64,000 nt of DNA from Desulfosudaceae bacterium (GCA_963674745.2 CAXXDV010000001.1:288001-352000); one strand, 5' to 3'. Counted from the first letter of the stretch, positions 32,706-56,849 are shown. Made by a program: numbers and translations. The notes: generated by a model from the letters alone, not told the origin.

Positions 32706-33371
32706 TTATGCGTCTGTTTGAGCGATCAGTTTGTTCAGTTGATCCAGCAGCAATAATTTCAACCGGTCCAGTGTCGCGGGCCAGGCCTGCATGGGAATGC
32801 CCATCCAGTCACAGTATTCCAAAAAGTCCTCGGGGCTTTCCGCCATGTACTGATCCAGGTAACCGAGACTGTCTAAAACAATGGCACCACCGGTATGCTG
32901 GGGGAAATTTTCATTGGCCAGACCTTTATCCCAGCCCTTGAAAACCAGTTTCCGGAACCGGATCCAGCCGGGGGTCATCCACCAGACCTTTTCACCACCC
33001 GCCAGTTCCGCCGCGATTTGTTCCTGCTCGGCCTCGTCGGCAATCATATTCATGCAATGGGTGGCGTCAATTCTGACCACGCCCGGCCCCTGCTCTTCGA
33101 TAATGGTCTGCATGGTCCTCAAAGGATCGTCCGCATTCACATAACAGAACTTGCCGCCGTAAACGACAATCACTTTATCGACTTTTTCCCGGGCCTTATT
33201 AATTCTGTCTACGAGCTGGCGTTCCAGTTCATGGACGTCCTGATGAAGTCCGGGTGTGGTAAAATAAATATGTTCCGTGTCCAGAAAGCCTTCTTCCCGT
33301 AGTTGTTCAAGCTCCATTCGCATGGTTCCGCATGCGACAATGGCAACTTCTGAAAATGACTGGTTTTCCAT
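32706..33371 (-). CDS. DUF1638-like protein (corrinoid-system associated)
   Basis: IVACG...PGLH...YGGKFC...HCMNM...MTPGW pattern; adjacent to the ASKHA activator. Confidence 0.78.
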   Translation of the reverse strand: MENQSFSEVAIVACGTMRMELEQLREEGFLDTEHIYFTTPGLHQDVHELERQLVDRINKAREKVDKVIVVYGGKFCYVNADDPLRTMQTIIEEQGPGVVRIDATHCMNMIADEAEQEQIAAELAGGEKVWWMTPGWIRFRKLVFKGWDKGLANENFPQHTGGAIVLDSLGYLDQYMAESPEDFLEYCDWMGIPMQAWPATLDRLKLLLLDQLNKLIAQTDA

Positions 33372-33520: not shown

Positions 33521-35605
33521 TTAAAATTTCCCCTTCATGCTTGGGAAATCTTCCATATTGGTATGCGGTAAGAACAGTGCCGAGACGAACTCATCCATAA
33601 ACCGGTTATTGCTGGAAAAGTCGATATAGGTCATATTGTTTGAGATTTCGAGCGCCTCTTTCCGGTTCTGTTCGGACAACAGGGCCATGTAGGCACCAGC
33701 TATGGAACTGTTACCCTTGTAAAAAAACTTTTCCCGGTCAACGTCCGGCAGCAGACCGATGGATACGGCTTTGTTCAGATCGAGATACTGGCCGAAACCA
33801 CCGGTTATGATAATCCGGTCCACCATTGAAAAATCCATGCCCGCTTGATCCAGCAGGACTTTAAAGCCGGCGTATACGGCTCCTTTACTGCGGATGATGT
33901 TGTCGATATCCGATTCCATGAACAGGATGTCCCGGCCCACGGAGGTCTCATCGGCCAGAGCCACAATATAGGCTTTTTCATCACCGTCCCGGGTAATCCT
34001 GGGATGATTTTCATCGGCCTGTATTTTGCCATTCTGCTGAATAATGCCGACCTTAAGCATTTCCGAAATCAGATCGATCATTCCGGACCCGCAGATACCG
34101 CGCGGCGGCAGGTCACCGACAACCGTCAAGTCGGGAACAAACGTTTCCGAATCGATTACAACGTTTTCAATGGCACCTTCTTCGGCCCGCATCCCCCAAC
34201 GGACCCCGCCGCCTTCAAAGGCAGGCCCGGCCGAACAAGAAGCGGTCATCAGCCAGTCCTTGTTCCCCAGGACGATTTCTCCGTTAGTTCCCACATCGAT
34301 AAACAGGGTCACAGGGTCTTCCCGGTGAAAACCGGTGTAGATTAGCCCGGAAACAATATCACCACCCACATAACTGGCAGGCCCGGGCATAACAAACACG
34401 GCTGCTGAAGAATTGACCTTCAGGCCGACGTTGCCAGCCTTTAATACAGGAAAAGCCGAAACAGAAGAAACATAGGGGTCTCGCCGGATATGGCGCGGTT
34501 CGATCTGAAGCAGCAGATGTACCATGGTCGTATTGCCGGAAAGCACCACATTATCGACCTGCTCACGCTTTACACCGGCACTGTCAATGGCCTCATTGAT
34601 CAGGCCGTTAATCGTAGCCAGTCCCATACGGCTGAGTTTTTTGACCCCGTCTTTTTCCGCGCAGACAATCCGGTTGATGACATCGTCTCCGCAGGCGGCC
34701 TGCCGATTATGTCCTGAAGTCGCGGCCAGAATGGTCCCGTCCGTCATATCCACCAGGTAAACCACAATGGATGTTGTCCCGATATCAACGGCTAGTCCCA
34801 GGGAACGATCTCCTTCATTGCCGGGCAGCACACCGACGATTTCCGAAGAACAACGCTTTTGCGTCACCAGGGCAGTCACCTTCCAGTCTTCATTGCGCAT
34901 GGCTTCGGCCAGTTGCCGCATAACGTTCAAGCCGATACTCATCCGGCTGACATCGCATCCGGCCCGGGATAGCCCCCGCAAAAGCCGGTCCAGATCGCTG
35001 ATCGAGTCATCCAGGGTGGGCGGGTTCATCTCAAGCGGAATATGCCTCAACATGGGGGAAATACCTTTGACCAGACCCTGTAGACGATCCGTTTCCGCCT
35101 TTCCCATGCCGGCAATCTTGAGCTTCTTTTCCAGTGTTTCCTCGGGAATCCGAACCGTCACATCACCATGGACCGTGGTTTGACAGGCCAGCACATAATT
35201 CTTTGCTTTTTCTTCATCGCTTAACAGGGGGGTTTCGGTTTTTTTCACATCCCCGGACTCCAGGACCAGTTTGCATTTACCGCAGGACCCTTTTCCATTA
35301 CAGGAGGCATTGATAGGGACATCCCCGGCCACGGCCGCTGTCAGAAGCGTTTGTCCATCCGAAACAACAACCTCTTTATTATCCGGCAGAAACAGCACCC
35401 GGTGCTGATCTGAGCCGGCCGTTACGGCAGTATCGTCGATTCCCTTGCCGCCCCTTTTTTCCATAAACCAGATAGGGCAGGAAGAACGGAATTTACAGTG
35501 CAAATTCGGGTCCCGACATTTCAGACAGTCTTCGCATAAATAGACATTATGCTTCATACACAAAAAACTGGTCTCACGATCCGGATGATTGATACATTTT
35601 CCCAT
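33521..35605 (-). CDS. RACo/ASKHA ATP-dependent reductive activator of corrinoid proteins, with 2Fe-2S domain and extra Cys/His-rich N-terminus
   Basis: CNGKGSCGKC...LACQ; AVDIGTT, IDVGTNGE, SAGPAFEGG, GICGSG. Confidence 0.92.
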   Translation of the reverse strand: MGKCINHPDRETSFLCMKHNVYLCEDCLKCRDPNLHCKFRSSCPIWFMEKRGGKGIDDTAVTAGSDQHRVLFLPDNKEVVVSDGQTLLTAAVAGDVPINASCNGKGSCGKCKLVLESGDVKKTETPLLSDEEKAKNYVLACQTTVHGDVTVRIPEETLEKKLKIAGMGKAETDRLQGLVKGISPMLRHIPLEMNPPTLDDSISDLDRLLRGLSRAGCDVSRMSIGLNVMRQLAEAMRNEDWKVTALVTQKRCSSEIVGVLPGNEGDRSLGLAVDIGTTSIVVYLVDMTDGTILAATSGHNRQAACGDDVINRIVCAEKDGVKKLSRMGLATINGLINEAIDSAGVKREQVDNVVLSGNTTMVHLLLQIEPRHIRRDPYVSSVSAFPVLKAGNVGLKVNSSAAVFVMPGPASYVGGDIVSGLIYTGFHREDPVTLFIDVGTNGEIVLGNKDWLMTASCSAGPAFEGGGVRWGMRAEEGAIENVVIDSETFVPDLTVVGDLPPRGICGSGMIDLISEMLKVGIIQQNGKIQADENHPRITRDGDEKAYIVALADETSVGRDILFMESDIDNIIRSKGAVYAGFKVLLDQAGMDFSMVDRIIITGGFGQYLDLNKAVSIGLLPDVDREKFFYKGNSSIAGAYMALLSEQNRKEALEISNNMTYIDFSSNNRFMDEFVSALFLPHTNMEDFPSMKGKF

Positions 35606-37952: not shown

Positions 37953-39002
37953 TTAATCGATCCGGATAGTTTCTTCAGCACCGTCTACGACTTCGCCCAC
38001 CAGGGCCGCGTCTTCGACACCGGCAGCTTTTAAGGCCCCTACCAGGTCCTCCCCCCCGGACCGGTCGACACTGATCAGCAGGCCGCCCGAAGTCTGGGGA
38101 TCGACCAGCACGTCCTGCAGTGAACGGGAGACAGTACCGGAAAAGATCAGCATGGCATCCCGGAACTCCCGGTTTTTGTGCGCACCGGCCGGAATCAGCC
38201 CCATGTCGGCATACGCCAGGGCTTCCTTGATCACCGGTACATCGGCCGCATAAACCCGGATGCCCATAGCCGAGCCCACGACCATTTCTGCCAGATGGCC
38301 CAAAAACCCGAAGCCGGTGATATCCGTACAGGCGCCGACATTAAACTGCGCCATCACTTCCGCCGCCGTCCGGTTGAGTTCGGCCATCTGCCGGCAAACC
38401 CGGTCAACCAGATCCGCCGGAGCCAGCTCCCCCTTGATGGCGGTATTGACGATACCCGTACCCAGCGCCTTGGTCAGCACCAGACGATCCCCGGCACGCA
38501 GCGCTTTCTTGGTCAGCACCCGGTCAGGATGCACAAACCCGGTAACCGACAGCCCGTATTTCAATTCTTCGTCTTCAACGCTGTGGCCGCCGATCAGCAC
38601 AACCCCGGCTTCGGCCATTTTATCGATGCCGCCCTGCAGGATCATGCGCAGCACGGACATATCCATCTTTTGAGCAGGGAATGCCACCAGGTTCATGGCG
38701 GTTTTGGGAACGCCGCCCATGGCGTAAACATCGCTCAAGGCATTGGCGGCCGCGATCTGTCCGAACCAGTAGGGGTCATCGACGATGGGTGTAAAAAAGT
38801 CCACCGTCTGGATCAGGGCCAGATCATCGGAAATTTTATACACGCCGGCGTCATCGGCACGCTCAAGCCCGACCATGACATTTTCATCAGACGGAAACGT
38901 CATACCGCACAAAGCCCTGTCCAGGTCCCCTGGCGCCAGCTTGGACGCTCACCCGGCCCCGGCCACAGTTGCGGTCAGACGGATATCTTTCGTTTTATCC
39001 AT
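37953..39002 (-). CDS. selD: Selenide, water dikinase, selenocysteine-containing (TGA at codon 18)
   Basis: MDKTKDIRLTATVAGAG-TGA(38951-38949)-ASKLAP, then DDAGVY, QTVDFFTPIVDDP, GGHS, DITGFG, DPQTSGGLL. Confidence 0.96.
38921..38933 (-). promoter_or_regulatory. SECIS-like hairpin of selD
   Basis: CCAGG-GGA-CCTGG beginning 15 nt after the in-frame UGA. Confidence 0.7.
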
Positions 39003-44082: not shown

Positions 44083-47000
44083 ATGGATATGTCCCCCATA
44101 TTTCCGGTATCTGCAATCGCCCTGGTTTTTCTGCTCGGTGTGCTTGCCGCCCTGTTGCTGAGTCGCGACAAACTTAAAAAAAGGCTCGAAGAAACCCGGG
44201 CAGCATATCAACATCTTGAGGAAGCCTCGAAAAGCTATCGCCTGCTGGCGGAAAATATCAATGAGGTTATTTATATTATTGATATCGCCACCCTGCAATA
44301 CACGTATGCCAGCCCTTCGGTCCTCCGGACGCACGGTTTTACACCCGAAGAACTGACCGAGCTGACAATAAACCGGTTATTAACACCGCAATCCCTGGAA
44401 AAGGCATTAAAACATATAGCCGAAGAGCTTGAGCGGGACAACCTGCCCGGAGTAGATCCTGCCCGGCATATCACCATCGAGCTCGAGCAATATCGGAAAG
44501 ACGGCTCGGTTATACTGGTCGAAACATCTGCCAAGTTCTTGCGGGATGAAACCGGGCGGCCTGTTTCCATCGCCGGCGTCGTCAGGAACATCGGGGAACG
44601 TAAGCAGGCGGAAAACGCCCTGCGGGAAAGTGAAAAGCTGTATCGCCTGCTGGCCGACAATATCAACGAAATTATCTTTATAATCGACCTTGAAACATTT
44701 CGACATACCTATGCCAGCCCTTCGGTAAAAAACATACTGGGATATACACCGGAAGAGATGCTGGCATTGCCCATTGAAAAGGTGCTGGCGCCGAAATCAC
44801 TGGAGCATACCGCAAATATCCTTGCCGATGCGTTTGTCTGGGAGCCCGCATCCGATGCTGCCCCGGACAAAAATGTTATCCTGGAACTGGAAGTCTATCA
44901 CAAAAACGGTTCGATTGTGTGGGTGGAAACCAGCGCCAAAGCGCTGCGTGACATAACCGGAAAGCCCGTGTCAATACTCGGCGTTACCAGGGATATCTCG
45001 GAACGGAAGAAGTCCGAAGCCGCCCTGCGGGAAAGTGAAGAACGCTATCGCCTGCTGGCAGACAATATCAGCGAAGTCATTTACATCATTGACCTGGATT
45101 CCCTTCGCCATTTTTATATCTCCCCTTCCGTATACCAGGTGCATGGATATACGTCGGAAGAGTACCTGGAGCTCCCGCTAGAAAAAGTTCTGACGCCGCA
45201 CTCTCTTGACCTGGCACTCAAAACGATTGAATCAGAAGTTGCCAGAGGATACGATCCGGAAACCGATAATAGCCGGTTTATTACCCTTGAGCTTGAGGAG
45301 TATCGGAAAGACGGATCAACCCTCTGGATGGAAAATATTGCCCGTGTTTACCATGATGAAAAAGGAAAACCGGTATCCATTATCGGTGTGGCCCGGGATA
45401 TCACCGAACGGAGAAGATCCGAAATCGCCCTTCGCGAAAGCGAAAAATTGTATCGCCTGCTGGCCGACAATATCTCTGAAACAATTTCCATTCTCAACCT
45501 GAAAGACCTGTCTCATCAGTATGTTTCCCCTTCCGTAAAAAAGCTCAAAGGTTTTACGGCGGAAGAAGCCCTGGTGCAACCGATTGACCAGGTATTAACA
45601 CCCCCGTCTCTTCAACTGGCCACACAGACCATCACCGAGGAACTTGCCAGGGATGGGCAGCCCGGCGTAACGCCTGACCGTCATCGCACGCTGAAACTGG
45701 AGCAATACTGCAAAAACGGCACCACTGTCTGGACCGAAGTAGCAGCCTCTTTTTTAAGAGACGAAACCGGAAAACCGGTATCGCTTCTGACAGCGGCCAG
45801 AGACATCTCAGAACGGATAAAAGCGGAAATGAATCTTCGTGAAAGTGAGGAACGCTACCGCATGCTGGCCGACAACATCAGCGAATTGATTTATCTCTTC
45901 GACCCGCAACGGCTGCGCTTTACTTTTGCAACACCTTCCGTCCATTCTATGTTTGGTTATACAATAGAAGAGTTTCTGGAACTTCCATTTGACAAATTAT
46001 TGACCCCGCCATCCTTTGAGACAGCCATTCAGGCCATAAAAGACGAACTGGCCAGGGGCCAGGAGCCTGAAAACGGTAATCTTAAATACATCACCCTTGA
46101 GCTCGAGGGTTATCGAAAGGATGGTTCTACGATCTGGACGGAAACGATTGGCCGGATTTTTTTTGATAAAGACGGCAACCCGTTATATCTTCTTGGCGTC
46201 AGCCGTGATCTTACCCAGCGCAAAGAGACAGAAGAAGCCATGAAACAGGCCCGGGACGCAGCTGAAGCGGCCAATCGGGCCAAAAGTGAATTTCTGGCCA
46301 ACATGAGCCATGAAATCCGCACCCCCATGAACGGTGTGATCGGTATGACCGAACTGCTGCTGGGCAGTCCGCTTTCAACGGAACAGCATGAATACGTGGA
46401 CAGTTTGAGAAGCAGCGCGGAAGCGCTCCTGGTGATCATCAAGGATGTGCTTGATTTTTCCAAAATCGAAGCCGGGATGCTCAACCTTGAAATTATTGAT
46501 TTTGACCTGAATCAACTCTGTAAAGAAGTACATGACAATATTAATATCAAAGCCATACACAAACAAATCACCTACCATACATCCATCGAAAAAAACGTCC
46601 CACTCATTCTCAAGGGAGATCCGGTCAGGCTGCGCCAGGTGCTTTTCAACCTCTGTGAAAACGCAATCAAATTTACACAGGAGGGGTCGGTCAGGGTCAC
46701 GGTTTCCCTGAAGGAAAAAACCGGCACAAGGGCCACTCTTTTATTCGAAGTCACGGATACCGGTATCGGTATTCCTTTGGAGCACCAGGATATTATTTTT
46801 GACTCTTTCTCCCAGGTGGACGCCTCCACCACCAGGCGTTTTGGCGGTACCGGACTGGGACTGGCCATATCAAAACGGCTGGTGACCTTACTGGGCGGAG
46901 AAATCAGTGTTTACAGCCGACCGGGCCAAGGCACGACGTTCAGATTTTCAGCCCCTTTTGACATTTTGGAACAACAACCTGCGCCCCTTACCCCATCGGC

Positions 47001-47403
47001 CGGACAGGATCTGGAAACGGTCGTGAATACCAAACCGGCCAAAATCCTTCTGGTCGAAGACAATGATATCAGCCAGAAAGTCATCACACAGATGCTTGAG
47101 CATTTCGGGCATATGGTGACCATTACCGCAAACGGAGCAGAAGCGGTGAAAATATTCGGCCAACAGGATTTCGACCTGGTACTCATGGACATCCAGATGC
47201 CGGTCATGGACGGCGTTACCGCCACAAAAAAAATTCACGAGCTGCAACAGGGCAAAAGCAGAAAAACGCCGGTTGTTGCCCTCACTGCCAACGCCATGGC
47301 CGGTGACCGGGAACGTTTTCTCAGCCAGGGAATGAACGATTATATTTCCAAACCGGTAACACTGGAAACGCTGGAAGTGGTTATCAGGCGGAATATCAGT
47401 TAA
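44083..47403 (+). CDS. Hybrid sensor histidine kinase (TM, 5x PAS/PAC, HisKA, HATPase, receiver)
   Basis: FLANMSHEIRTPMNG, NAIKFT, DTGIGI, GGTGLGL, LMDIQMP; five YR(L/M)LA(D/E)NI repeats. Confidence 0.96.
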   Translation: MDMSPIFPVSAIALVFLLGVLAALLLSRDKLKKRLEETRAAYQHLEEASKSYRLLAENINEVIYIIDIATLQYTYASPSVLRTHGFTPEELTELTINRLLTPQSLEKALKHIAEELERDNLPGVDPARHITIELEQYRKDGSVILVETSAKFLRDETGRPVSIAGVVRNIGERKQAENALRESEKLYRLLADNINEIIFIIDLETFRHTYASPSVKNILGYTPEEMLALPIEKVLAPKSLEHTANILADAFVWEPASDAAPDKNVILELEVYHKNGSIVWVETSAKALRDITGKPVSILGVTRDISERKKSEAALRESEERYRLLADNISEVIYIIDLDSLRHFYISPSVYQVHGYTSEEYLELPLEKVLTPHSLDLALKTIESEVARGYDPETDNSRFITLELEEYRKDGSTLWMENIARVYHDEKGKPVSIIGVARDITERRRSEIALRESEKLYRLLADNISETISILNLKDLSHQYVSPSVKKLKGFTAEEALVQPIDQVLTPPSLQLATQTITEELARDGQPGVTPDRHRTLKLEQYCKNGTTVWTEVAASFLRDETGKPVSLLTAARDISERIKAEMNLRESEERYRMLADNISELIYLFDPQRLRFTFATPSVHSMFGYTIEEFLELPFDKLLTPPSFETAIQAIKDELARGQEPENGNLKYITLELEGYRKDGSTIWTETIGRIFFDKDGNPLYLLGVSRDLTQRKETEEAMKQARDAAEAANRAKSEFLANMSHEIRTPMNGVIGMTELLLGSPLSTEQHEYVDSLRSSAEALLVIIKDVLDFSKIEAGMLNLEIIDFDLNQLCKEVHDNINIKAIHKQITYHTSIEKNVPLILKGDPVRLRQVLFNLCENAIKFTQEGSVRVTVSLKEKTGTRATLLFEVTDTGIGIPLEHQDIIFDSFSQVDASTTRRFGGTGLGLAISKRLVTLLGGEISVYSRPGQGTTFRFSAPFDILEQQPAPLTPSAGQDLETVVNTKPAKILLVEDNDISQKVITQMLEHFGHMVTITANGAEAVKIFGQQDFDLVLMDIQMPVMDGVTATKKIHELQQGKSRKTPVVALTANAMAGDRERFLSQGMNDYISKPVTLETLEVVIRRNIS

Positions 47404-47521: not shown

Positions 47522-48388
47522 TTACCTTAACCACTTAACCGAGGGGCTTTTGCGGAACGCCGTGTTGGTATGCCTGTAGGCGGGATATCCCAGAACAAGG
47601 CCGACATGAACACACCGGTCCCGGGGAATTTGCAACAGACGTCGAAGCTTGCGGCTGCGTTTTAACATCAGCACCAGAAAGCCGATATAGCAGGTTCCCA
47701 ACTCCCGGGCATGGGCGTAATTGATCATATTGGTAGCGGCGATGTTACAATTGTCCGGGCCAAAGGCCGCGCCTCTGGGCGTCGCGATCAGGATCAGTAC
47801 CGGGGCGTTATGCAGGATAAAATCCCGTCCTTTTTTATTCTCCGCGATATAATAATCCATGGTACCCAAATAACGGTTCAATGTGCGAACCAGGCCGGTG
47901 TTTTGAAAAACCGCCAACAACTTCCGTCCGATGCCTGAATTGGCCCACCTGTTCAACCGTACACCGAAGCCAAAAATGTGCGCGGCGACCTGATCCAACA
48001 CCTGCCGGTCGGTCACCACCGTGTAGACGACATTTTGTAAATTACTGGCCGTGGGCGAAAACCGGGCCAGATCAATCAGTTCTTCAATCACCTCATCCGG
48101 CACCGGATCTTTTTTATAACGACGAATGCTTCGCCGGGAAACAGCGATTTCCCGGTAAACTTCCGGATCAAGCCGCTTTTTATCAATCCGTTGGGTCTGT
48201 AACTCGTCCAGCAGGGAATGTTGCACTGCTCCGGACGGGCATACCGCCAGGCAGTGGCCGCAGGCATTGCACATTTTCGGATTGACCGGCCGTGGCACGC
48301 CATCTATCTCTCTCCACACCCCGGCCACGCATTCCTGAACGCAAAGCATGCACAGGGTGCATTTTTCTTCCCGCCTTTTGATTTCCAT
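47522..48388 (-). CDS. Nitroreductase with N-terminal 2x[4Fe-4S] ferredoxin domain
   Basis: CTLCMLCVQEC, CNACGHCLAVCP; SRRSIRRY, PTASNLQ. Confidence 0.92.
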   Translation of the reverse strand: MEIKRREEKCTLCMLCVQECVAGVWREIDGVPRPVNPKMCNACGHCLAVCPSGAVQHSLLDELQTQRIDKKRLDPEVYREIAVSRRSIRRYKKDPVPDEVIEELIDLARFSPTASNLQNVVYTVVTDRQVLDQVAAHIFGFGVRLNRWANSGIGRKLLAVFQNTGLVRTLNRYLGTMDYYIAENKKGRDFILHNAPVLILIATPRGAAFGPDNCNIAATNMINYAHARELGTCYIGFLVLMLKRSRKLRRLLQIPRDRCVHVGLVLGYPAYRHTNTAFRKSPSVKWLR

Positions 48389-49234
48389 TTATGATTTGTT
48401 CCCGCCATTTGAATTCAAATAATTGTCAAACCAGCCTTTTTTATAGATATACCCGGAAATGCGCAAATAGCTTTCAGGAAACAGTCGTTTCATTAACCAG
48501 ATGGCCTTCCCATCGATCTGACAGATGGCATAAAATTTTTTCTTTTCAGCGCAGTTATAGGCGTGACGGGCCACATCTTCGGCCGTCACTTTTGATTTTT
48601 CGAAAAATGAACTGGCCATATTGACCTGACGGGCCTGGGGGGATTTAAACTGATCCATCAGGTTGGTCTTGAAAAATGTCGGGGCAATGACGGTAACACC
48701 GATATTTTTCGGCGCCAGTTCCATGCGCAGGGTCTCGGAAAGCGAAATCACGCCGGCCTTGGGTACGTTATAACAGCCCATCTCGGGAAAAGAAGCAATT
48801 CCGGCCGACGAAGCCATATTCATCAGGTGACCGAAGCCCTGTTTCGCCATAATCGGGATGAAGGTCCGGCACCCGTAGATGACGCTCATCAAATCCACGT
48901 CAATCATCCACCGCCAGAGATCAAGCGGCGTTTCTTCCACGTATCCGGCACTGGCCACACCGGCGTTATTGACCATGATATCCACACCGCCCCATTTATC
49001 CAGATAATAAGCCGCCATGGCATTTATTTTTTCCGGATCGGTGACATCACAGACATACATGTCACCCGCACCGCCGGCATTATTGACCAGACGGACCGTT
49101 TCCCCGGCCCGTTCTTCGTTAATATCCGAAACACCTACCCGCCAGCCTTTTTCGGCGAATACCAGGGCCAGGGCCCGGCCGAATCCGCTGCCCGCGCCGG
49201 TAATGACCACCCGTTTTTGCGGAAACCGCTTCAT
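48389..49234 (-). CDS. Short-chain dehydrogenase/reductase
   Basis: TGAGSGFG, NNAG, YNVPK. Confidence 0.93.
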   Translation of the reverse strand: MKRFPQKRVVITGAGSGFGRALALVFAEKGWRVGVSDINEERAGETVRLVNNAGGAGDMYVCDVTDPEKINAMAAYYLDKWGGVDIMVNNAGVASAGYVEETPLDLWRWMIDVDLMSVIYGCRTFIPIMAKQGFGHLMNMASSAGIASFPEMGCYNVPKAGVISLSETLRMELAPKNIGVTVIAPTFFKTNLMDQFKSPQARQVNMASSFFEKSKVTAEDVARHAYNCAEKKKFYAICQIDGKAIWLMKRLFPESYLRISGYIYKKGWFDNYLNSNGGNKS

Positions 49235-49350
49235 ATTTCCCTCCTGCCATCAAGTTTTTTTCTACGACTGAGTAGTTTTTTTCTCACAGGACGGGCCTGT
49301 TGTCAATATCATAATACAAATGCATATTCGAACCCGACTTCATTTTTTTC

Positions 49351-49397
49351 TTGACAGGCACACCCCACCCCCTTATATTGAACAAACAGTCAATATA
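49351..49397 (+). promoter_or_regulatory. Sigma70 promoter with overlapping palindromic operator
   Basis: TTGACA(49351)-N17-TATATT(49374); TATATTGA-N8-TCAATATA at 49374-49397. Confidence 0.75.
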
Positions 49398-49413
49398 AGA
49401 GGACCGCTTAACC

Positions 49414-50103
49414 GTGACCCAAAAAACGCTCGGACTCAGAAGGAATCTGAAAGAACAGCAGCGTCGCGCCCAGATCAAAGAGGCGGCCATCAATCTCTTT
49501 TCTTCAAAAGGCTACCAGCAATCCACCATGGATGACCTGGCCGCGGAAGCCGGGGTCAGCAAATCGCTCATTTACTGGTACTGGGACAGCAAGGCCGCTT
49601 TATTGACGGAGCTGATCGACACCTGCATGAATCAATATATTGACCTGCTGACCGAGGCGGTTGAATCCGACGATCCGTTCATGGACAAATTCCACCGAAC
49701 CCTGTGGCAGTACCTTGACATGTCCCGAAAAAGCGACCGGCTCAACAAGCTGGTTCATTTCTGTTCTCTCCACAATACCTCAAAGAACAAGGATAATTTT
49801 GCCAAACGGGTTAATGATCATTACCGCCACGTCCTGGTTTTGATTGAGAAACTGATCGACCAGGCCGTTGAGGCCCGGTTTTTACCGCAAACGACAGACC
49901 GATCCGCAATTTCCCTGCTCCTGCTCTCCCTGACCGAAGGTCACATCTACATGTCAATCCTGGAAGAACGGCTTCCTCTGGAGCGTATTTTCACCGGCAT
50001 GTTTCTGCTGTTGATGGAAGGCCAGAACGTGTCTCAGGAACAGGCAACCACAAATAATATCGGCGATAATATTGAACAACCAGTACCGAAACAAAAAGAA
50101 TAA
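49414..50103 (+). CDS. TetR/AcrR-family regulator
   Basis: AAINLFSSKGY...TMDDLAAEAGVSKSLIYWYWDSK HTH. Confidence 0.94.
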   Translation: MTQKTLGLRRNLKEQQRRAQIKEAAINLFSSKGYQQSTMDDLAAEAGVSKSLIYWYWDSKAALLTELIDTCMNQYIDLLTEAVESDDPFMDKFHRTLWQYLDMSRKSDRLNKLVHFCSLHNTSKNKDNFAKRVNDHYRHVLVLIEKLIDQAVEARFLPQTTDRSAISLLLLSLTEGHIYMSILEERLPLERIFTGMFLLLMEGQNVSQEQATTNNIGDNIEQPVPKQKE

Positions 50104-50127
50104 AAACCCATTTTTTCAGGAGGCATT

Positions 50128-50799
50128 ATGAGTGACCGGCAATTTCAGGCATTATCATCGTTCCGCGAGAAATTTCTGAGTTTTGACATTGACGCCATAA
50201 ATCAGGAAGCGGACAACATGCTGGCCGCAGGTGTCGGTGTCAGGCAGTTTCTTGACACCTGCACGCCGATCATGGCCGAGATCGGTGACAAATTCGAAAA
50301 AGGCGAATATTACCTTCCCCACCTGGTCATGGCCGGCGAAATGTTCAAAACCGCCAGCGCTAAAGTCAAAAGCGCCATGCAGGCCGAGGACAGCGGCAAT
50401 GCCATTGCCGATATTGTACTGGGAACCCCCAAAGGCGATATCCACGACCTGGGCAAGGATATTTTCGCGGTCCTGGCCGAAGCCAGCGGTTTTGCCGTTC
50501 ACAACCTGGGCGTCGACGTCCCGCCGGAAGCCTTTATCGCCCGGGTGGAAGAAACCGGCGCCGGCATTCTGGGCCTGTCTTCCTTGTTGACGACCACATT
50601 TGAAACAATCGAAGAGATTATTTCCCAGCTGGACAAGAAAGGACTGCGCAAACAGACACGTGTCATCCTCGGCGGCGGTGCCACCGAGCAAAGCCTGATC
50701 GAAAAACTGGGGGTTGATTTTCAGACCAGGGATGCCTACGAGGGCATTACCATTCTTAAAAACCTGACCGACGGAGAGACGAAAGGAGCCATGGCATGA
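50128..50799 (+). CDS. Corrinoid (B12-binding) methyl-carrier protein
   Basis: Cap IGDKFEKGEYYLPHL; GDIHDLGK (DxHxxG), NLGVDVP, GLSSL, GGG. Confidence 0.93.
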   Translation: MSDRQFQALSSFREKFLSFDIDAINQEADNMLAAGVGVRQFLDTCTPIMAEIGDKFEKGEYYLPHLVMAGEMFKTASAKVKSAMQAEDSGNAIADIVLGTPKGDIHDLGKDIFAVLAEASGFAVHNLGVDVPPEAFIARVEETGAGILGLSSLLTTTFETIEEIISQLDKKGLRKQTRVILGGGATEQSLIEKLGVDFQTRDAYEGITILKNLTDGETKGAMA

Positions 50800-51983
50800 A
50801 AACGCCGAAAATGATTTATGAAAAAGACACCATGACGGCCCAGCAGCGGCTTGACGCCGTGGTTCGCCTGGAAAAGCCGGATCGCGTTCCGCTTTCTTTA
50901 ATGCTGTATTATTTCGCACCCCTGCAGGTCGGGACCAAAATGAGTCAATATATGACCGATCAGGCGACGTATAAAAGCGTCATGAAACAAATCTGGGAGG
51001 ATATCGGCCCCTGGGACATTTACTACAACATCAACCCCTATTCCCGGATGATGTACAATTATGTCATGATGATGCGCGAACTCTGGCCCGGCATTGAGCT
51101 GGAAGAAGACGCCATGGCCAAGATCGATGAAATTCAATACATGGAACCCGAAGATTATGATGAGGCCGTCAAAACCTCTCCGCTGCTGGCGGACATGAGA
51201 TTCCGTCTGCGCATGCTCCCCCGCTTCTGCCAGGAGGCCCAGGGTAAAAGCATGCCGGTCCTGCTTGCCAAGATGGCCAAAGGCCTCATCGGACAGGCCC
51301 TGTTCTGGAGAAGCGATTTTAAATGGTGGCGTGACCAGGGGGCCGTCATCCAGATCGGTTACCAGGCGGAGATGCCGTTTGATACCTTTTCCCAGGCCCG
51401 TAATGTCATCAATTTTTCAGCCGACCTGTTCAAACGCCCTGAAAAAATCGGCCGGGCAGCCGAGCACTTGTCCCGCAATTTTGCGGACTCGGCTATCCTG
51501 GCCTGCAAACTGATGGGCGTGCCGATTGTCCAGTGTTACTGCCACCGCACCTCCAACAGTTTTATCTCTCCTAAGCAGTTTGAGGAACTGGCCTTTCCCA
51601 GCATGGAGATTATCGTTAACCGGATTGTCGATGCCGGGTTGACACCGATTCTGCATTGTGACGGTGACTGGTTGAAAAATCTCAAAACCCTGCGCCGTCT
51701 GCCCGCCAAAAAAATCATCATCCAGCTGGACGGGCTGACCGATATTTTCGCGGCCAAACAGGAAATCGGCGACCATATGTGTATATTCGGCGATGTACCG
51801 GCCGCCAAGCTGGTCACCGGAACGGTTGATGAGGTAGACGAATACTGTCATCGATTGATTGAAGAAGTCGGAAAAGGGGGCGGATTTATTCTGGCCGGTG
51901 GCTGAGAGATCCCGCCAAACGCGAAAGCGGAAACCGTCCGTGCGATGGTTCAGGCAGTACAAAAATATGGGTATTACAATTAA
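50796..51983 (+). CDS. URO-D/MtaA-family corrinoid methyltransferase, probable selenoprotein (TGA 51903-51905)
   Basis: KPDRVP, ISPKQFEE, ILHCDGD, GGFILAGG-TGA-EIPPNAKAETVRAMVQAVQKYGYYN-TAA; the TAA overlaps the next ATG. Confidence 0.85.
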
Positions 51984-52699
51984 TGAACAACCCCGAAATC
52001 AACCTATCACTACCCGATCATGCAAAGATCCTGTCCGGGACGATATTACGGCTGGGATATCCCGGCCCGGAGGCCGTTACCGGGAACATTTCCGTCCAGA
52101 TCGAGCAGGGAATCGAGACCTGCCTGGAACTGGCCCGGACAAAAGAAACACATCACACAACGGCTTTTACCGGTCTGGACAAAACCGCCATTCGTGGAGA
52201 CGGCCTTTGCCTGGAAACCGTCAACTGGACGCGGCTGGCCGCCCGCATGTCGGGTATCTGTGAGTTGTGCTGTTTCGCTGTCACCCTGGGCAAGGCGGTT
52301 GATGAACGCATCAAACAACAGGGTAAGACCGCCATGCTGCAAGCGCTGATGCTGGACTCAGCCGCTTCGGTTCTGGCCGACCTCTATGCCGACCAGGTTC
52401 AACAGCAGATCAATCACCATTACCGACAGCAGGGGCTGCAATCAAGCGTCCGTTTCAGCCCGGGATATTGTGACTGGCCCATGAAAGAGGGGCAGGCGAC
52501 ACTGGTCCCCTTTCTGGGCCCGGCATCCATCGGCATCAGCGCTTCGGACACGGGATTGATGACACCCCGCAAATCCATCACCGCCGTGGTTATTGCGGCC
52601 GAACAGATGCCGGCGGTAAGCCCCTGTTTTCTGTGTGTCCGGGAGTGTCCTCACCGGCGCGCACCCTACGAAGGCAAAAAAGACAATCCCAGAAAATAA
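51983..52699 (+). CDS. Standalone MetH activation-domain-like protein with C-terminal Cys cluster
   Basis: FAVTLG, LDSAAS, RFSPGYCDW, MTPRKSITA; CFLCVRECPHRR. Confidence 0.88.
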   Translation: MNNPEINLSLPDHAKILSGTILRLGYPGPEAVTGNISVQIEQGIETCLELARTKETHHTTAFTGLDKTAIRGDGLCLETVNWTRLAARMSGICELCCFAVTLGKAVDERIKQQGKTAMLQALMLDSAASVLADLYADQVQQQINHHYRQQGLQSSVRFSPGYCDWPMKEGQATLVPFLGPASIGISASDTGLMTPRKSITAVVIAAEQMPAVSPCFLCVRECPHRRAPYEGKKDNPRK

Positions 52700-52732
52700 T
52701 ATCGGATCTTCTTTTAATCCAGTTTCCGCAAA

Positions 52733-52767
52733 GGGTTCAAGGATTCAAGGGGTCGAGGGTTCAAGCG
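52733..52767. repeat. 8-mer tandem array, copy B
   Basis: gggttcaaggattcaaggggtcgagggttcaagcg. Confidence 0.75.
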
Positions 52768-52838
52768 TTTGTTGGTGGAAGCAGGGGCGACCCCATAAGC
52801 GCTAAGTTGTTTTTAACATGTAAGGGGTGAAGTCAGGT

Positions 52839-53062
52839 TTGAACACCGAACATCGAACGTCCAACATCGAATTTTGAATAATGTATTCTGTCAATTCCAA
52901 AAATGTGGTGGACAGTGCGGAAATAGAGAAATTGCCTAAAATTTTCGTCACAAGTATCAAGACAACTGAAAAGAAGAAGAAATAGTAATCAGGCTTCCAT
53001 TTTGAAATTGGCAGAATACCTCATTGGATGTTCGACGTTGGACGTTCAATGTTCGATGTTCA
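52839..53062. repeat. Inverted pair of 7-mer arrays enclosing a gene remnant
   Basis: ttgaacaccgaacatcgaacgtccaacatcgaa ... ttggatgttcgacgttggacgttcaatgttcgatgttca. Confidence 0.8.
52902..52985 (+). pseudogene. Remnant resembling a four-helix-bundle (IVP-like) protein C-terminus
   Basis: NVVDSAEIEKLPKIFVTSIKTTEKKKK*; no credible start. Confidence 0.5.
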
Positions 53063-53169
53063 TCCTAACGCTTATGGGGCAGCATGGACGTGATTCACAA
53101 TCGGGTACGGCACGCCTTGCTCCTACAGGAATTCGTGATCTGTGCCTTGCAGATGTGACCCGGTTTTGG

Positions 53170-54006
53170 TCAGACCGGATGGGCGGCCATAAAGGCAAGC
53201 AGCTCATCGGCCAGACGATCGGGTGCCTCAATGGCGGTCATATGCCCCACACCTTCCAGCATCACGTGGCGGCAGTCAGGAATGGCCTCAGCCATAATCC
53301 GGGAAGGCTCGATAAACAGGTCGTCTTTTTCTCCCACGACAATCAACACCGGGCAGGTAATCTTTTTTAGCCCGGCCACCATCATATCCGGGTCCTGGTA
53401 AAAAGAACGCACAAAAGCGGCTATGCTGGTTCTATTGCCAATACGGATAATGTCAAAGGCCTTATCCCACATGGCGGCGTTATCTTCTGCTTCGGCAATT
53501 CCCCGGAAAAAGGGGAACGGTTTCTTCTTAACAAATTCGATGGTCTGTTCCCAGGTGCGCTCCTCAAAGCTTTGGGCAAAGCGGTCATAAAAAATAGCCC
53601 TTGCTTCTTTTTTCCCGGGAAACGGGCTTGTGGCCGAAGAGGTATTGGTTAACATCAGACCGGCCAGACGGGAACTGTTTTCCATGGCCCAGCGGGAGGC
53701 CGCAAACCCGCCGGTGGAATGCGTCAGCAGATAAAAACGATCCACTTCCAAATGATCCGCCAGGGCCTCGAAGTCGGCGGCAACGGTGTCGGCGTCATAA
53801 CCGGTCGGCTCCCCATCGACCGAACTGCGGCCATGGCTACGGATGTCCATGGCGATAAACCGGTGTTTTTGGACCAGCCGCTCCGTAATCCCTGAAACAC
53901 GCCAATAGGTCGTGTTCTCTATCAGGCCATGGACCGCGATAACCGGATCACCGGATCCCGTCTCTTCGTAGTAGATGTTCGCGTTGTTTCTGGATAAATA
54001 AGGCAT
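53170..54006 (-). CDS. Alpha/beta hydrolase
   Basis: VHG, THSTGG nucleophile elbow, GEKD, GVGH. Confidence 0.92.
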   Translation of the reverse strand: MPYLSRNNANIYYEETGSGDPVIAVHGLIENTTYWRVSGITERLVQKHRFIAMDIRSHGRSSVDGEPTGYDADTVAADFEALADHLEVDRFYLLTHSTGGFAASRWAMENSSRLAGLMLTNTSSATSPFPGKKEARAIFYDRFAQSFEERTWEQTIEFVKKKPFPFFRGIAEAEDNAAMWDKAFDIIRIGNRTSIAAFVRSFYQDPDMMVAGLKKITCPVLIVVGEKDDLFIEPSRIMAEAIPDCRHVMLEGVGHMTAIEAPDRLADELLAFMAAHPV

Positions 54007-55385: not shown

Positions 55386-56849
55386 ATGGATGCCGAAAAG
55401 ATTAAAAAACTCGACCGCATGTTCGCTCCAAGGGGGCTGGCCGTCTTCGGCGGCGTTTCCAAGCCGGGTGCTTTTGCCAACCTGATCCTGACCAGCCTGA
55501 TCACTTATGGCTACAAAGGAAAACTTTATCCCATATCTCCGGCCGGTGGCACGGTGGCCGGTCTTGACGTTCTGCCTGATCTTGGTGCTGTTGACGGCCC
55601 CGTTGACCTGGCGTCGATATCGGTCCCGGCGGAGGCCGTACCCGATGTTCTTGAGCAATGCCTGAGGCACGGCGTGGCCGGTGCCGAAATCCATACCTCC
55701 GGTTTTGCTGAAACCGGCCAGGCAAGCGGTATTGAACTGCAGCAGAGAATGCAGGAAATCTCACATCAGGGACTTGTCATCGTCGGGCCCAACTGTTTCG
55801 GACTCCATTCACCGGCCGGCGGCGTGACCCTGCTGCCGGGATTTGACTTTTCAAAAACGCCGGGTAACATCGCCATGATTTCCCAAAGCGGCGGCATTGC
55901 CAATGATTTCGGGCATGATGCCATTGCCGCCGGGCTGAACATCAGTAAAATCATCTCTTTTGGTAACGGCTGTGACCTGGAAGCCACCTCACTGATGGAA
56001 TACCTGGCTCAGGACAACGATACCCGCTTTATCGCGGCTTACCTGGAAGGCGTCCGGGATGGACGCCGCTTTCTTGACACTGTCCGTGCCATATCAAAAC
56101 AAAAACCGGTGGTTATATGGAAGGGTGGGCTCACCCCCCTCGGCGCCCGGGCAACTTTCAGCCATACCGGATCACTGGGAGGTGAGGCCCAAATCTGGCA
56201 AGGCGCGCTTAACCAGGCAGGTGCCATCCAGGTAAACGGCCTGGATGAAATGGTGGACACCCTTACCGCCCTGACATTTTTCAACCGTCGGGGTCGTCGC
56301 CTGGCCCTGGCCGGCGGCGGCGGCGCCATCGGGGTTTTCAGCTCAGACCTGGCGCACCAGTGGGGTCTGGAGATACCGGCCTTCAGCGCCGAAACACAGA
56401 AAGTGCTGGCCGGCTATTTCCCCACACCCGGAAACAGCGTCGTCAACCCCCTTGATACGGGAACCCCCATGTTCCCATTAGAGGGATTAAACGGCATGAT
56501 CCGGGAAATCATCGACCGCGAACCCATTGATGTCCTGCTGCTGATCATGCTCATGCATCCTTTGGAAGTGGTTACCACCACCTTTATGAAAATGGCCGGC
56601 GCAACGGTTGACGCATCACCGGCCGAAGAATACCTGTCGAAACTCTTAGCGGCCTTAACCGACATCAGAAAAGAAACCGATAAGGACATTGCCCTTGTAC
56701 TGGAGAACAAAACCTGGCGAGTCGAAGACGTAAGCGTGGAGCTGGTAAGACGACGTCTGAGCAAAGCCTTTCAACAACAGGGGATTGCCGTGTTTCCGTC
56801 GGCTGAAAGAGCCCTGCGCGGTATTCGTAATGCCGCTCTCTACCGGTAG
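55386..56849 (+). CDS. NDP-forming acyl-CoA synthetase alpha-type subunit (CoA-binding)
   Basis: SGFAETG, GPNCFG, SQSGG, SFGNGCD, SHTGSL phospho-His, NPLD. Confidence 0.9.
   Translation: MDAEKIKKLDRMFAPRGLAVFGGVSKPGAFANLILTSLITYGYKGKLYPISPAGGTVAGLDVLPDLGAVDGPVDLASISVPAEAVPDVLEQCLRHGVAGAEIHTSGFAETGQASGIELQQRMQEISHQGLVIVGPNCFGLHSPAGGVTLLPGFDFSKTPGNIAMISQSGGIANDFGHDAIAAGLNISKIISFGNGCDLEATSLMEYLAQDNDTRFIAAYLEGVRDGRRFLDTVRAISKQKPVVIWKGGLTPLGARATFSHTGSLGGEAQIWQGALNQAGAIQVNGLDEMVDTLTALTFFNRRGRRLALAGGGGAIGVFSSDLAHQWGLEIPAFSAETQKVLAGYFPTPGNSVVNPLDTGTPMFPLEGLNGMIREIIDREPIDVLLLIMLMHPLEVVTTTFMKMAGATVDASPAEEYLSKLLAALTDIRKETDKDIALVLENKTWRVEDVSVELVRRRLSKAFQQQGIAVFPSAERALRGIRNAALYR

Follow-up and report, generated by a model that had tools for sequence, protein, structure and literature searches.

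We examined a 64,000-nucleotide stretch of the genome of a Desulfosudaceae bacterium (hereafter the window), in which positions 49351–52699 hold a four-gene array on the plus strand behind a promoter and a palindromic operator. The first gene, tetR (49414–50103), starts with GTG and encodes a 229-aa TetR-family regulator (PF00440, E 7.8e-17). Its stop lies 24 nt before the ATG of the second gene, which is preceded by AGGAGG and encodes a corrinoid (B12-binding) methyl-carrier protein of 223 aa with PF02607 and PF02310 domains (CP; 50128–50799). The third gene (MT; 50796–51983) encodes a URO-D-fold corrinoid methyltransferase, 395 aa long with an in-frame TGA taken as selenocysteine (PF01208, E 1.1e-28 on readthrough), and the fourth (ACT; 51983–52699) a 238-aa stand-alone MetH-activation-domain protein (PF02965, scoring 35.7 bits where the cut-off is 25). 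ORFs and Pfam matches confirm the gene order and families given in the first-pass annotation (tetR, corrinoid protein, methyltransferase, MetH-activation-like protein). The overlaps that it had described among the last three genes are also present: the CP stop and MT start share ATGA at 50796–50799, and the MT stop TAA (51981–51983) shares one base with the ATG of ACT at 51983 (TAATG). The same holds for the CxxCxxxC tail of the MetH-activation-like protein, the C-terminus of ACT reading CFLCVRECPH.

The promoter is of the sigma-70 type (49351–49379, plus strand; TTGACA at 49351–49356, a 17-nt spacer and TATATT at 49374–49379) and is the top promoter-like site of the interval 49200–53200, with 11/12 matches; a TTGACA and TATA(T/C)T arrangement likewise stands upstream of tetR at orthologous loci. 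Its –10 hexamer is covered by the palindrome CTTATATTGAAC-AAAC-AGTCAATATAAG (49372–49401), the presumed site at which the TetR encoded in the operon binds. The strict operator pattern has a single match in the 5.55-Mb genome, and of the 15 orthologous upstream regions examined 13 contain the full palindrome, the exceptions being L047, where a contig end cuts the region, and L072, which has none. Two sequence features of a TetR-family repressor with an operator of its own, the TetR_N HTH domain (PF00440) and a palindrome at the gene's own promoter, are both present. Among solved structures TtgR and MbdR are nearest to the regulator, with the match confined to its N-terminal half, and no NCBIfam equivalog matches it at or above its cut-off.

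Divergent genes for an SDR (48389–49234, minus strand, adjoining the module upstream) and for a Fer4+nitroreductase protein (47522–48388, minus strand, paired with the SDR gene) lie where they had earlier been described. They could belong to the same pathway under shared TetR control, an idea suggested by the 179-bp intergenic region common to the pair and the operon, by the identical divergent arrangement in genome G002, and by SDR genes that fall inside 8 of the 79 loci examined. However, G002 is of the same genus and is the only other genome with the pair beside the module; G007, G009 and G027 lack it there. The operator, moreover, covers the –10 box on the tetR side, roughly 140 bp away from where the SDR gene starts, and the genome has more than 40 SDR paralogues, which makes chance adjacency likely. 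We therefore regard a common pathway as quite unlikely: because recurrence beside the module is confined to the genus, the pair is probably unrelated to it, and the functional link proposed in the first-pass annotation finds no support here.

The four genes themselves are co-conserved, their order recurring in other genomes. In the organism's family (f1), tetR-CP-MT is present at all 10 loci that carry the TGA-containing (Sec) form of MT. ACT lies directly 3' of MT at seven of these, one further contig ends just past MT, and two genomes (G011 and G005) encode a 48–49% identical ACT elsewhere, not beside the module. Across a 32-locus Thermodesulfobacteriota clade, CP is directly 5' of MT in 28 loci, tetR is upstream of CP-MT in 19, and ACT is present in 11; it is not beside the module in 21, some of whose contigs end too early to tell. 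The tetR-CP-MT core with its operator was found across several classes of Thermodesulfobacteriota. Relatives L056, L057 and L060 have a RACE-type activase in the cluster, and the genes neighbouring the module gave no consistent hint of a substrate.

The TGA at 51903–51905 (plus strand), codon 370 of MT, almost certainly encodes selenocysteine. It aligns with a cysteine (C370) that is invariant in 43 full-length Cys homologues and that corresponds, in a profile alignment, to the third zinc-ligand Cys of MtaA. Beyond it the MT frame has 25 sense codons; all 10 orthologues of family f1 carry one TGA at this place, and in all 10 genomes the following 25 codons are open and read EIPPNAKAET(V/I)RAMV...YGYY, a match to the C-terminus of the Cys homologues. 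In a set of 76 genome loci, nine have TGA at codon 370, and among the 120 database homologues listed, 19 end exactly at ...FIL(A/G)GG, full-length ones reading GCE(I/V)P. The genome encodes tRNA-Sec, selA, selB and selD, the last with a TGA of its own, as well as two fdhA genes with TGA. The TGA at an invariant Cys, the conserved frame beyond it and the Sec machinery bear out the earlier description of MT as a Sec-methyltransferase. In the family tree the Sec forms fall into two separate clades (SH-aLRT 99 and 100), which requires at least two changes; taken with the zinc-ligand position of the residue, the pattern suggests that the chemistry of the site has been under selection.

Gene callers and the NCBI annotation terminate these MT proteins at 369–372 aa, as they would if the TGA were a true stop that leaves a truncated protein of 369 aa or a decaying gene, with the 25 downstream codons untranslated. 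The lack of an Rfam SECIS match and the unusual distance of the downstream hairpin from the UGA would also fit such a stop. We nevertheless hold it to be extremely improbable. Codons past a true stop would hardly stay open and match the C-terminus of Cys homologues in 10/10 genomes, the stop of the extended frame overlaps the ACT start, the last helix of the MT model (residues 378–391) needs the post-TGA segment, and the TGA sits exactly at the invariant Cys in two clades.

The candidate SECIS hairpin, AACCGUC-CGUGC-GAUGGUU (51932–51950, plus strand), has 7 bp and a G-containing 5-nt loop and matches no Rfam model. It starts 29 nt past the U of UGA, whereas the fdhA and selD hairpins of the same genome start at +14 to +18. 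It is found in all 10 Sec forms and does not form in the two Cys forms examined. Pairing holds in all 63 of 63 alignment cells, with a single compensatory change from A-U to G-C and a single G-U/A-U pair; the covariation statistics are weak, the observed score being reached by 50 of 500 shuffles, and folding of the region gives a z-score of 0.11. Synonymous constraint is raised over MT codons 371–386 (6 of 13 codons vs 48 of 228 gene-wide).

MT combines a URO-D TIM-barrel with an N-terminal extension of the MT1 type. With its AlphaFold2 model (mean pLDDT 95.6), Foldseek retrieved UroD and MtaA 4ay7 (TM 0.65/0.75), with MetE as a remote structural match. By sequence the best solved relative is CdmB (9rui; phmmer E 1.1e-25, profile E 1.3e-39), whose profile alignment spans MT residues 17–74 and 96–394, while the match to MtaA is weak (profile E 0.016). 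No NCBIfam model reaches its cut-off on MT, and all curated MtaA/MtbA models fall short (PRK06252, 68.8 vs 244 bits; MtaA, 49.6 vs 400; mtaA_cmuA, 49.1 vs 235.4; MtbA, 31.9 vs 600). MT thus resembles MT1-type, substrate-side enzymes (CdmB and O-demethylase-like proteins) more closely than MtaA, judged from sequence.

The putative active site comprises H287, C288, D289 and C370, invariant in 44 sequences. In the profile alignment H287 pairs with His in the MtaA motif LHICG, and U370 with Cys in PGCG (APGCGIA), but the second zinc Cys of MtaA pairs with D289 and not with C288. The MT ligand set is thus ambiguous: MT reads H-C-D, with Sec at the third ligand position. According to PMC10418091, S-methyltransferases of the UroD superfamily have a His-Cys-Cys zinc site, whereas O-methyltransferases have carboxylates in place of Cys. 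Likeness to MT1 enzymes is uninformative on the metal site of MT, since CdmB lacks zinc as well as catalytic residues (His or Cys) at the aligned places.

CP scores under the cut-offs of the MtbC, MtgC and MtaC families and contains a D104-x-H106-x-x-G109 (DxHxxG) motif that is invariant in 21 orthologues. Both CP and ACT match the metH model TIGR02082, each in its fitting region. The ACT model (pLDDT 89.3) has MetH activation domains as its top 19 Foldseek matches, and the protein aligns with TM0269 (1j6r) at E 1.4e-9. In MetH, the SAM-binding region of the activation domain is R-x-x-x-G-Y, and ACT keeps a motif of this type, R157-F-S-P-G161-Y162, and may bind SAM. Its four conserved cysteines are C163, C215, C218 and C222; R157-F-S-P-G-Y-C163-D and P214-C215...C222 are invariant in 23 sequences and C218 nearly so. 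This Cys motif may bind an Fe-S cluster, in a four-Cys tail modelled at low confidence (pLDDT 39–65). ACT belongs to a large uncharacterised four-Cys family, of which 312 cluster representatives match at E ≤ 1e-30, and PGYC together with a C-terminal CxxCx3-5C occurs in 142 of the best 150. The family lies beside URO-D/CP systems and MetH-like genes: the neighbours in 29 ACT loci of other genomes include a URO-D methyltransferase in nine, CP in seven, RACo in four and a MetH-like gene in three.

The first-pass annotation had reported no second methyltransferase (pterin-binding or MT1), and we found none in the operon or its flanks, nor a pterin-binding MT2 or RACE-type activase. The sole PF00809 gene of the window (9732–10601), between ftsH and a pantothenate kinase gene, looks like folP, and RACo genes are present elsewhere in the genome, e.g. 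at window positions 33524–35605. The reading that we favour, with somewhat better than even confidence, is a TetR-repressed, ligand-inducible corrinoid methyl-transfer operon with a substrate-side-like Sec MT, CP, and ACT as SAM/Fe-S reactivase. The four genes form a conserved unit with one promoter and a TetR-type operator, and the ligand-inducible corrinoid (de)methylation system proposed earlier remains the best account, once the SDR/nitroreductase link is removed from it. TetR would sit on the palindrome over the –10 box until released by a small-molecule ligand, and a single transcript would then yield TetR, CP, MT and ACT. MT, apparently built like the MT1 enzymes of anaerobic demethylase systems (CdmB, O-demethylases), would dock on CP and shuttle methyl groups between the CP cobalt and a small substrate. 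Unlike CdmB, it would retain a metal- or heteroatom-activating site made up of His287, Cys288/Asp289 and residue 370, the last almost certainly selenocysteine instead of cysteine in this lineage, with UGA presumably read with the help of the downstream hairpin. ACT would most likely bring CP back from the oxidised Co(II) state, methylating it reductively with S-adenosylmethionine while electrons enter through a putative Fe-S cluster. With its fold, R-x-x-P-G-Y motif and four Cys, it would stand in for an ATP-dependent RACE/RamA activase. The second half-reaction may fall to the same MT or to a methyltransferase encoded elsewhere; MtsA is said to perform both half-reactions with methylthiols, and MtsAB reportedly shows that one URO-D enzyme and one corrinoid protein can suffice. 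Weighing against this reading are the distant hairpin with its weak covariation statistics, the ambiguous ligand set, the lack of zinc and catalytic residues in CdmB, the loci where ACT is not beside the module, the RACE-type activase of several relatives, the low-confidence model of the four-Cys tail and neighbours that hint at no substrate consistently.

The same proteins could instead form a self-contained SAM-driven methylation system, in which ACT routinely loads a SAM-derived methyl onto Co(I)-CP and Sec MT works in the MtaA (MT2) direction on a soft acceptor such as a thiol, selenol, sulfide, selenide or metalloid, a second methyltransferase being unneeded. The MetH activation domain transfers a methyl group from SAM to cob(I)alamin, CP, MT and ACT form a closed set, no further methyltransferase being encoded within or close to it, URO-D/CP pairs repeatedly have ACT-type proteins as neighbours, and U370 and H287 fall on MtaA zinc ligands. 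Sulfur or selenium substrates would suit a soft Cys/Sec site (PMC10418091). Yet the far greater closeness of MT to the MT1-type CdmB than to MtaA and its scores under the MtaA/MtbA cut-offs argue against this direction, ACT is present in just 11 of 32 clade loci while CP-MT persists, and the use of SAM via B12 for ordinary methylation has no known precedent or energetic reason. We consider the SAM-driven scheme unlikely. Somewhat less likely still is a combined proposal, in which the selenolate is a direct ligand of the catalytic metal (His/(Cys or Asp)/Sec) and CP, ACT and MT are a SAM-fuelled B12 methylation machine for a soft S/Se/metalloid acceptor, with ACT loading the methyl and Sec MT delivering it. 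Such a machine would account for the lack of a second methyltransferase gene; we know of no natural zinc-selenolate catalytic site that has been described.

The operon might also be a non-canonical cobalamin-dependent methionine synthase, with CP as the MetH B12 domains, ACT as the activation domain and MT as the homocysteine barrel, passing a methyl onto homocysteine from methyl-tetrahydrofolate or another donor. ACT has no evident MetH partner: PF02574 has no match in the genome (99.96% complete), and neither PF02574 nor PF01717 has one there or in 12 other genomes of the family. The TIGR02082 matches of CP and ACT and the MetE match of the MT model agree with this assignment, and a PF02574 protein in or beside the related clusters L056 and L057 ties such modules to homocysteine. 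However, that protein is a dedicated homocysteine methyltransferase, so that activity does not belong to the URO-D enzyme there. Moreover, G004 (87% complete), G006 (94%) and G008 (79%) have no MT at E 1e-40 and no MetH or MetE, MT is likewise missing from 10 of 12 further genomes in the order that have neither domain, and a TetR-repressed promoter is atypical for methionine synthesis. This makes a methionine synthase a very doubtful identity for the operon.

Among known systems, CdmBCA, the chloromethane methyltransferase system of Acetobacterium dehalogenans (PDB 9rui), and related aryl-methyl-ether O-demethylases consist of MT1, a corrinoid protein, MT2 and a RACE-type activase, according to PMC13222342. 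The operon shares with them a URO-D-fold MT1-like enzyme with an N-terminal extension and an adjoining gene for the cognate corrinoid protein, but has a MetH-activation-type protein in place of the pterin-binding MT2 and RACE activase, is predicted to be under TetR control, and encodes an enzyme with invariant H287, C288, D289 and Sec/Cys370 where CdmB has no His or Cys. The methylcobamide:coenzyme M methyltransferases of methanogens (MtaA, MtbA and MtsA; 4ay7) have the same fold, with His and the third zinc Cys on H287 and U370. MT, from a bacterial host, is only weakly similar to them in sequence, is about 55 residues longer, with an MT1-like N-terminal part, and has Asp289 at the second zinc Cys and Sec for Cys.

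Type 1 mlp gene clusters, for which Kountz and Balskus (PMC10418091) require a Ram protein and two or more Mlps, likewise pair a corrinoid protein with a URO-D-superfamily methyltransferase without a tetrahydrofolate methylase, and there too occur in selenium-using anaerobes, methyl-sulfur or methyl-selenium chemistry being proposed. With one URO-D methyltransferase and no Ram, the operon is not such a cluster as so defined, and the selenium link described there is one of substrate and genomic context, whereas here selenium would be inside the enzyme. ACT itself is comparable to the stand-alone reactivation domains of split methionine synthases, such as Bacteroides BT0249, named in the GapMind preprint (10.1101/741918). 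The Thermotoga TM0269 (1j6r) type shares the PF02965 fold, the R-x-x-P-G-Y motif and a length of about 215–240 aa, and 3 of 29 ACT-family members examined directly follow a MetH-like gene. Unlike these domains, ACT has four conserved Cys (PGYC and the CxxCx3C tail), and its partner is the separate CP of a URO-D system in a genome without a MetH homocysteine domain; TM0269 has G at the C163 place and its 214-residue chain ends about 10 residues past the aligned stretch.

We came across no URO-D-family methyltransferase with Sec in the literature searched, and the main text of a 2026 selenoproteome review has no PF01208 or uroporphyrinogen entry. If the Sec reading is true, a URO-D-fold corrinoid methyltransferase would be added to the list of bacterial selenoproteins, and the natural Sec/Cys pairs of MT would offer a test of how the ligand tunes methyl transfer. 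The ACT family may give anaerobes a corrinoid-activation route that depends on SAM and Fe-S, as an alternative to ATP-dependent activases. Finally, since the organism's whole family has no recognisable MetH or MetE domains (13 genomes), corrinoid modules like tetR-CP-MT-ACT are candidates for methionine synthesis in this lineage.

Our sequence analysis identifies a predicted TetR-controlled corrinoid methyl-transfer module in which the enzyme would carry selenocysteine (Sec) at a metal-ligand position and a four-cysteine MetH-type activation protein would be the repair factor. ORF listing and family scans bore out the gene order and overlaps proposed in the first-pass annotation: tetR (49414–50103, PF00440), a corrinoid protein (CP, 50128–50799, PF02607 and PF02310), a URO-D-family methyltransferase (MT, 50796–51983, PF01208) and a member of the MetH activation-domain family (ACT, 51983–52699, PF02965) with the C-terminal end CFLCVRECPH, all on the forward strand. 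An AGGAGG motif precedes the CP start, 24 nt past the tetR stop, while an ATGA overlap joins CP and MT and a TAATG overlap joins MT and ACT. The interpretation as corrinoid methyl transfer also holds, except for the link that had been drawn to a divergent pair thought to share the control region, an SDR (48389–49234) and a ferredoxin-nitroreductase fusion (47522–48388), both recovered by the same listing and scans. This pair lies beside the module only in a genome of the same genus (G002), and for this lack of conservation we rejected both genes as members of the pathway. Just past the nitroreductase gene, and syntenic in G002 only, is a gene for a 1106-aa hybrid histidine kinase (44083–47403, forward strand), with about five repeated segments, counted by eye, before its kinase and receiver parts.

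HMM scans of all loci found tetR-CP-MT in 10 of 10 loci of the family, with ACT directly 3' in seven. At one locus (L049) the contig stops just past MT, and in two genomes (G011 and G005) ACT is missing from the module and a 48–49% identical copy is encoded elsewhere. Of the 32 loci in a Thermodesulfobacteriota clade on the MT tree, 28 have an adjacent CP, 19 have tetR upstream and 11 have ACT within the cluster, several contigs being too short at the end to tell. A promoter (TTGACA-17-TATATT, 49351–49379, 11/12 matches) precedes tetR, and a palindrome, CTTATATTGAAC-AAAC-AGTCAATATAAG (49372–49401), overlaps its –10 box as a putative TetR operator. Of 15 upstream regions from orthologous loci, 13 show the full palindrome, among them those of cysteine (Cys) forms, Desulfomonilia and Smithella, and its strict pattern has one match in the genome. 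Autoregulated TetR operons that have one target usually look like this. A search for the TetR ligand by homology gave no assignment, the nearest structures, TtgR and MbdR, aligning over the N-terminal half only.

No intrinsic terminator was found past ACT. A gap of 470 bp separates ACT from a convergent hydrolase gene, and much of it is occupied by a 63-nt imperfect inverted repeat (52840–52902 and 53000–53062) whose arms are 83% complementary and lie 97 nt apart. The repeat is made of units resembling GAACNNCNAACATC and contains other, nested repeats. A recurring neighbor of URO-D/CP modules is a CoA-binding, succinyl-CoA-ligase-like protein of about 490 aa (55386–56849 on the forward strand here; L044 7316–8788; L056 1997–3499; L059). 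It is encoded 3' of the module here and in G001 and G002, directly after the second URO-D/CP pair of the source genome, and upstream in two Desulfomonilia loci, beside an enoyl-CoA hydratase. This neighbor may hint at acid substrates activated as CoA esters.

The MT gene has a single in-frame TGA at codon 370 (51903–51905), followed by 25 more codons, and we read this TGA as selenocysteine on comparative grounds. Among the 120 best database homologs of MT, 19 stop precisely at ...GGFIL(A/G)GG, 14 of them 78–90% identical and five from groups at 60–66% identity; the truncated 369-aa forms carry the NCBI name 'uroporphyrinogen decarboxylase family protein'. Full-length homologs continue with GCE(I/V)P, and in an alignment with 43 of them Cys is invariant at the TGA column. 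At E 1e-40, MT matches were found in 13 of 41 relatives' genomes, and within the family itself in nine of 12 genomes plus the source genome. All 10 family orthologs have one TGA, at codon 370, and all 10 encode EIPPNAKAET(V/I)RAMV...YGYY 3' of it. The source genome encodes Sec machinery: tRNA-Sec, selA, selB, selD (with its own TGA) and two TGA-containing fdhA genes. A wider survey of 76 loci, drawn from species-representative genomes that are all metagenome-assembled, found TGA at this place in nine (seven of the same family and two Desulfomonilia) and 67 Cys-codon hits, certain loci having two or three paralogs and nine loci leaving the motif used for the Sec/Cys call unmatched. In a maximum-likelihood phylogeny with 87 rows, built by quick search and supported by SH-aLRT values only, the Sec forms fall into two clades (10 and 2 rows; support 99 and 100), both nested among Cys forms within the Thermodesulfobacteriota clade, and at least two Cys/Sec changes are needed.

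A candidate hairpin (AACCGUC-CGUGC-GAUGGUU, 51932–51950; 7 bp with a 5-nt loop) lies downstream of the TGA in 10 of 10 family Sec forms and does not form in the two Cys forms examined. In its favor, all 63 aligned cells are paired, with one compensatory change (A-U to G-C in G011) and one pair alternating between G-U and A-U, and the 50 nt past the TGA are 92% identical at the DNA level. At residue-conserved codons of nine full-length orthologs (excluding G012, in which the gene lacks its 5' end), the same codon is used in 48 of 228 gene-wide versus 6 of 13 in codons 371–386, and the best 16-codon window of constraint begins at codon 375. Against it, the hairpin starts 29 nt past the U of UGA, versus +14 to +18 for the fdhA and selD hairpins of the same genome, and shuffle statistics are weak because little varies. 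An Rfam scan of 49200–52900 (E up to 10) returned no SECIS element or riboswitch, only four chance-level matches, and the single-sequence fold 3' of the TGA is uninformative (z-score 0.11). A different hairpin, weaker and closer to the UGA, is seen in the Sec forms of Desulfomonilia. The Sec call therefore leans mainly on the comparative evidence of homologs, orthologs, machinery, survey and tree. The selD gene (selenide, water dikinase; 37956–38981, reverse strand), some 10 kb upstream of the operon, also encodes a selenoprotein: a single in-frame TGA lies close to its 5' end, and a hairpin, CCAGG-GGA-CCUGG, about 18 nt past the UGA.

The AlphaFold2 model of MT (mean pLDDT 95.6) is a URO-D barrel whose top structural matches are UroD enzymes and MtaA (4ay7). 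Among proteins of solved structure, MT is nearest to CdmB, which is the Acetobacterium chloromethane:corrinoid methyltransferase (E 1.1e-25 with a single sequence, 1.3e-39 with a profile), in a match that takes in the N-terminal part. MtaA reaches E 0.016 only, and MT scores far under the cut-off of all MtaA/MtbA NCBIfam models. Given the closeness to CdmB, the weak MtaA match and the scores below cut-off, the predicted architecture of MT is of the substrate-side (MT1) kind. Residues H250, R251, H287, C288, D289, C329, C351 and C370 are invariant in the MT family; CdmB has no zinc and no residues like the H287/C288/D289/C370 set. When MT is aligned to MtaA by profile, H287 falls on the LHICG His and residue 370 on the PGCG Cys, with the middle Cys of MtaA aligned to D289 and C288 adjoining. 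Counted along the 4ay7 chain with the tag allowed for, these MtaA positions correspond to the zinc ligands His240, Cys242 and Cys319. Kountz and Balskus (PMC10418091) describe a His-Cys-Cys site in UroD-superfamily S-methyltransferases and carboxylates in place of Cys in the O-methyltransferases. The predicted His/(Cys,Asp)/Sec site of MT would fall between the two types. We found no Sec-containing URO-D-family enzyme described in the open-access literature searched, and a term search of the main text of a 2026 prokaryotic selenoprotein review (PMC13188914) turned up none; a protein atlas lookup returned generic URO-D clusters only. Distant MT homologs (42–46% identity, mostly Actinomycetota) have as neighbor a glycyl-radical enzyme from the glycerol-dehydratase/PFL2 group in five of the 76 surveyed loci (L054, L065, L081, L097, L101) and an aldehyde:ferredoxin oxidoreductase in six (L063, L084, L085, L089, L090, L115).

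No second methyltransferase (MT2) was found in the operon or its flanks, and a pterin-binding gene at 9732–10601 was rejected as the missing MT2, lying between ftsH and a pantothenate kinase gene and being read as folP. The source genome has other corrinoid systems as well: on another contig, a URO-D gene of the His-x-Cys...Cys type paired with a dedicated CP; two MttB genes accompanied by a CP; and three RACo genes. Since neither PF02574 (the homocysteine S-methyltransferase domain) nor PF01717 (MetE) has a match in the source genome (G000, 99.96% complete) or in any of the 12 other family genomes (G001–G012), it is tempting to see the module as a replacement for methionine synthase. However, three of these family genomes (G004, G006 and G008) lack MT as well, and of 28 further genomes in the order, 12 are also without both domains and 10 of these have no MT either. 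The absence of both domains from genomes without MT weakens this reading, which we retain as a minor alternative.

Related clusters contain more genes. At one Sec-form locus (L056), tetR, CP and MT are followed by an ORF of 270 aa whose Cys tail is similar, a PF02574 homocysteine methyltransferase, another URO-D gene and another CP, then RACo and ACT; L057 and L060 resemble it, and in G027 another URO-D/CP pair lies upstream. At L056 (8067–12375; a Desulfomonilia MAG) and L057 (350–4869; another deltaproteobacterial MAG), the stand-alone homocysteine S-methyltransferase-domain protein (about 300 aa) and the second URO-D, second CP and RACE activase that follow it stand next to the module ortholog. 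The arrangement resembles a methionine synthase that would take its methyl groups from a donor other than folate. The window also encodes a RACE-type activase (Fer2 and RACo; 33524–35605) beside a DUF1638 protein (32709–33371) and a pyridine-nucleotide disulfide oxidoreductase (31325–32674), all on the reverse strand, and the genome has no MetH for this activase to serve. Phaeobacter fitness data (PMC5764234) link the DUF4445/DUF1638 pair to B12 reactivation.

The ACT protein matches Thermotoga TM0269 (E 1.4e-9), and the top 19 structural hits of its model (pLDDT 89.3) are all MetH activation domains. All 23 sequences compared keep R157-F-S-P-G-Y-C163-D, P214-C215 and C222, and nearly all keep C218. 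The Cys tail is modeled poorly, as would be expected if it needs a cofactor, and we infer that the four Cys form an Fe-S site and that ACT binds CP. Searching 1.84 billion cluster representatives with a profile gave 7892 matches at E ≤1e-3 and 312 at ≤1e-30, and 142 of the 150 best family proteins have both PGYC and a C-terminal CxxCx3-5C. Family members occur in 29 of 150 other genomes of the phylum; at one locus per genome with 1.5-kb flanks, the neighbors are a URO-D methyltransferase (adjacent in 9), a corrinoid protein (7), a RACE-type activase (4) and a MetH-like gene (3). A second ACT-type gene of the source genome (G000:C3:100623–101339; L043 6624–7337) is 34% identical and shares both PGYC and the Cys-rich tail. 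It is a lone gene flanked by sigma-54 regulators, and some 2.4 kb separate it from a B12-binding subunit/mutase/MeaB cluster. Price et al. (PMC5764234) discuss PF02965, DUF4445 and DUF1638 for methionine synthase only, and our open-access search found no literature linking PF02965 proteins to non-MetH corrinoid systems. The ACT family may be a general corrinoid reactivation factor of anaerobes, serving both MetH and URO-D/CP systems.

The operon appears to function in the manner of other anaerobe corrinoid methyltransferase systems (CdmBCA, O-demethylases, MtsAB, MtaABC) but is without the MT2 and RACE activase that round off bacterial demethylase clusters, and its MT falls outside the MtaA/MtbA equivalogs. 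Membership in the type 1 mlp clusters was rejected on their published definition. The general type of system is a known one, and what this operon would add to it is a TetR-controlled module that combines Sec at the metal-ligand position with a four-cysteine MetH-type repair factor.
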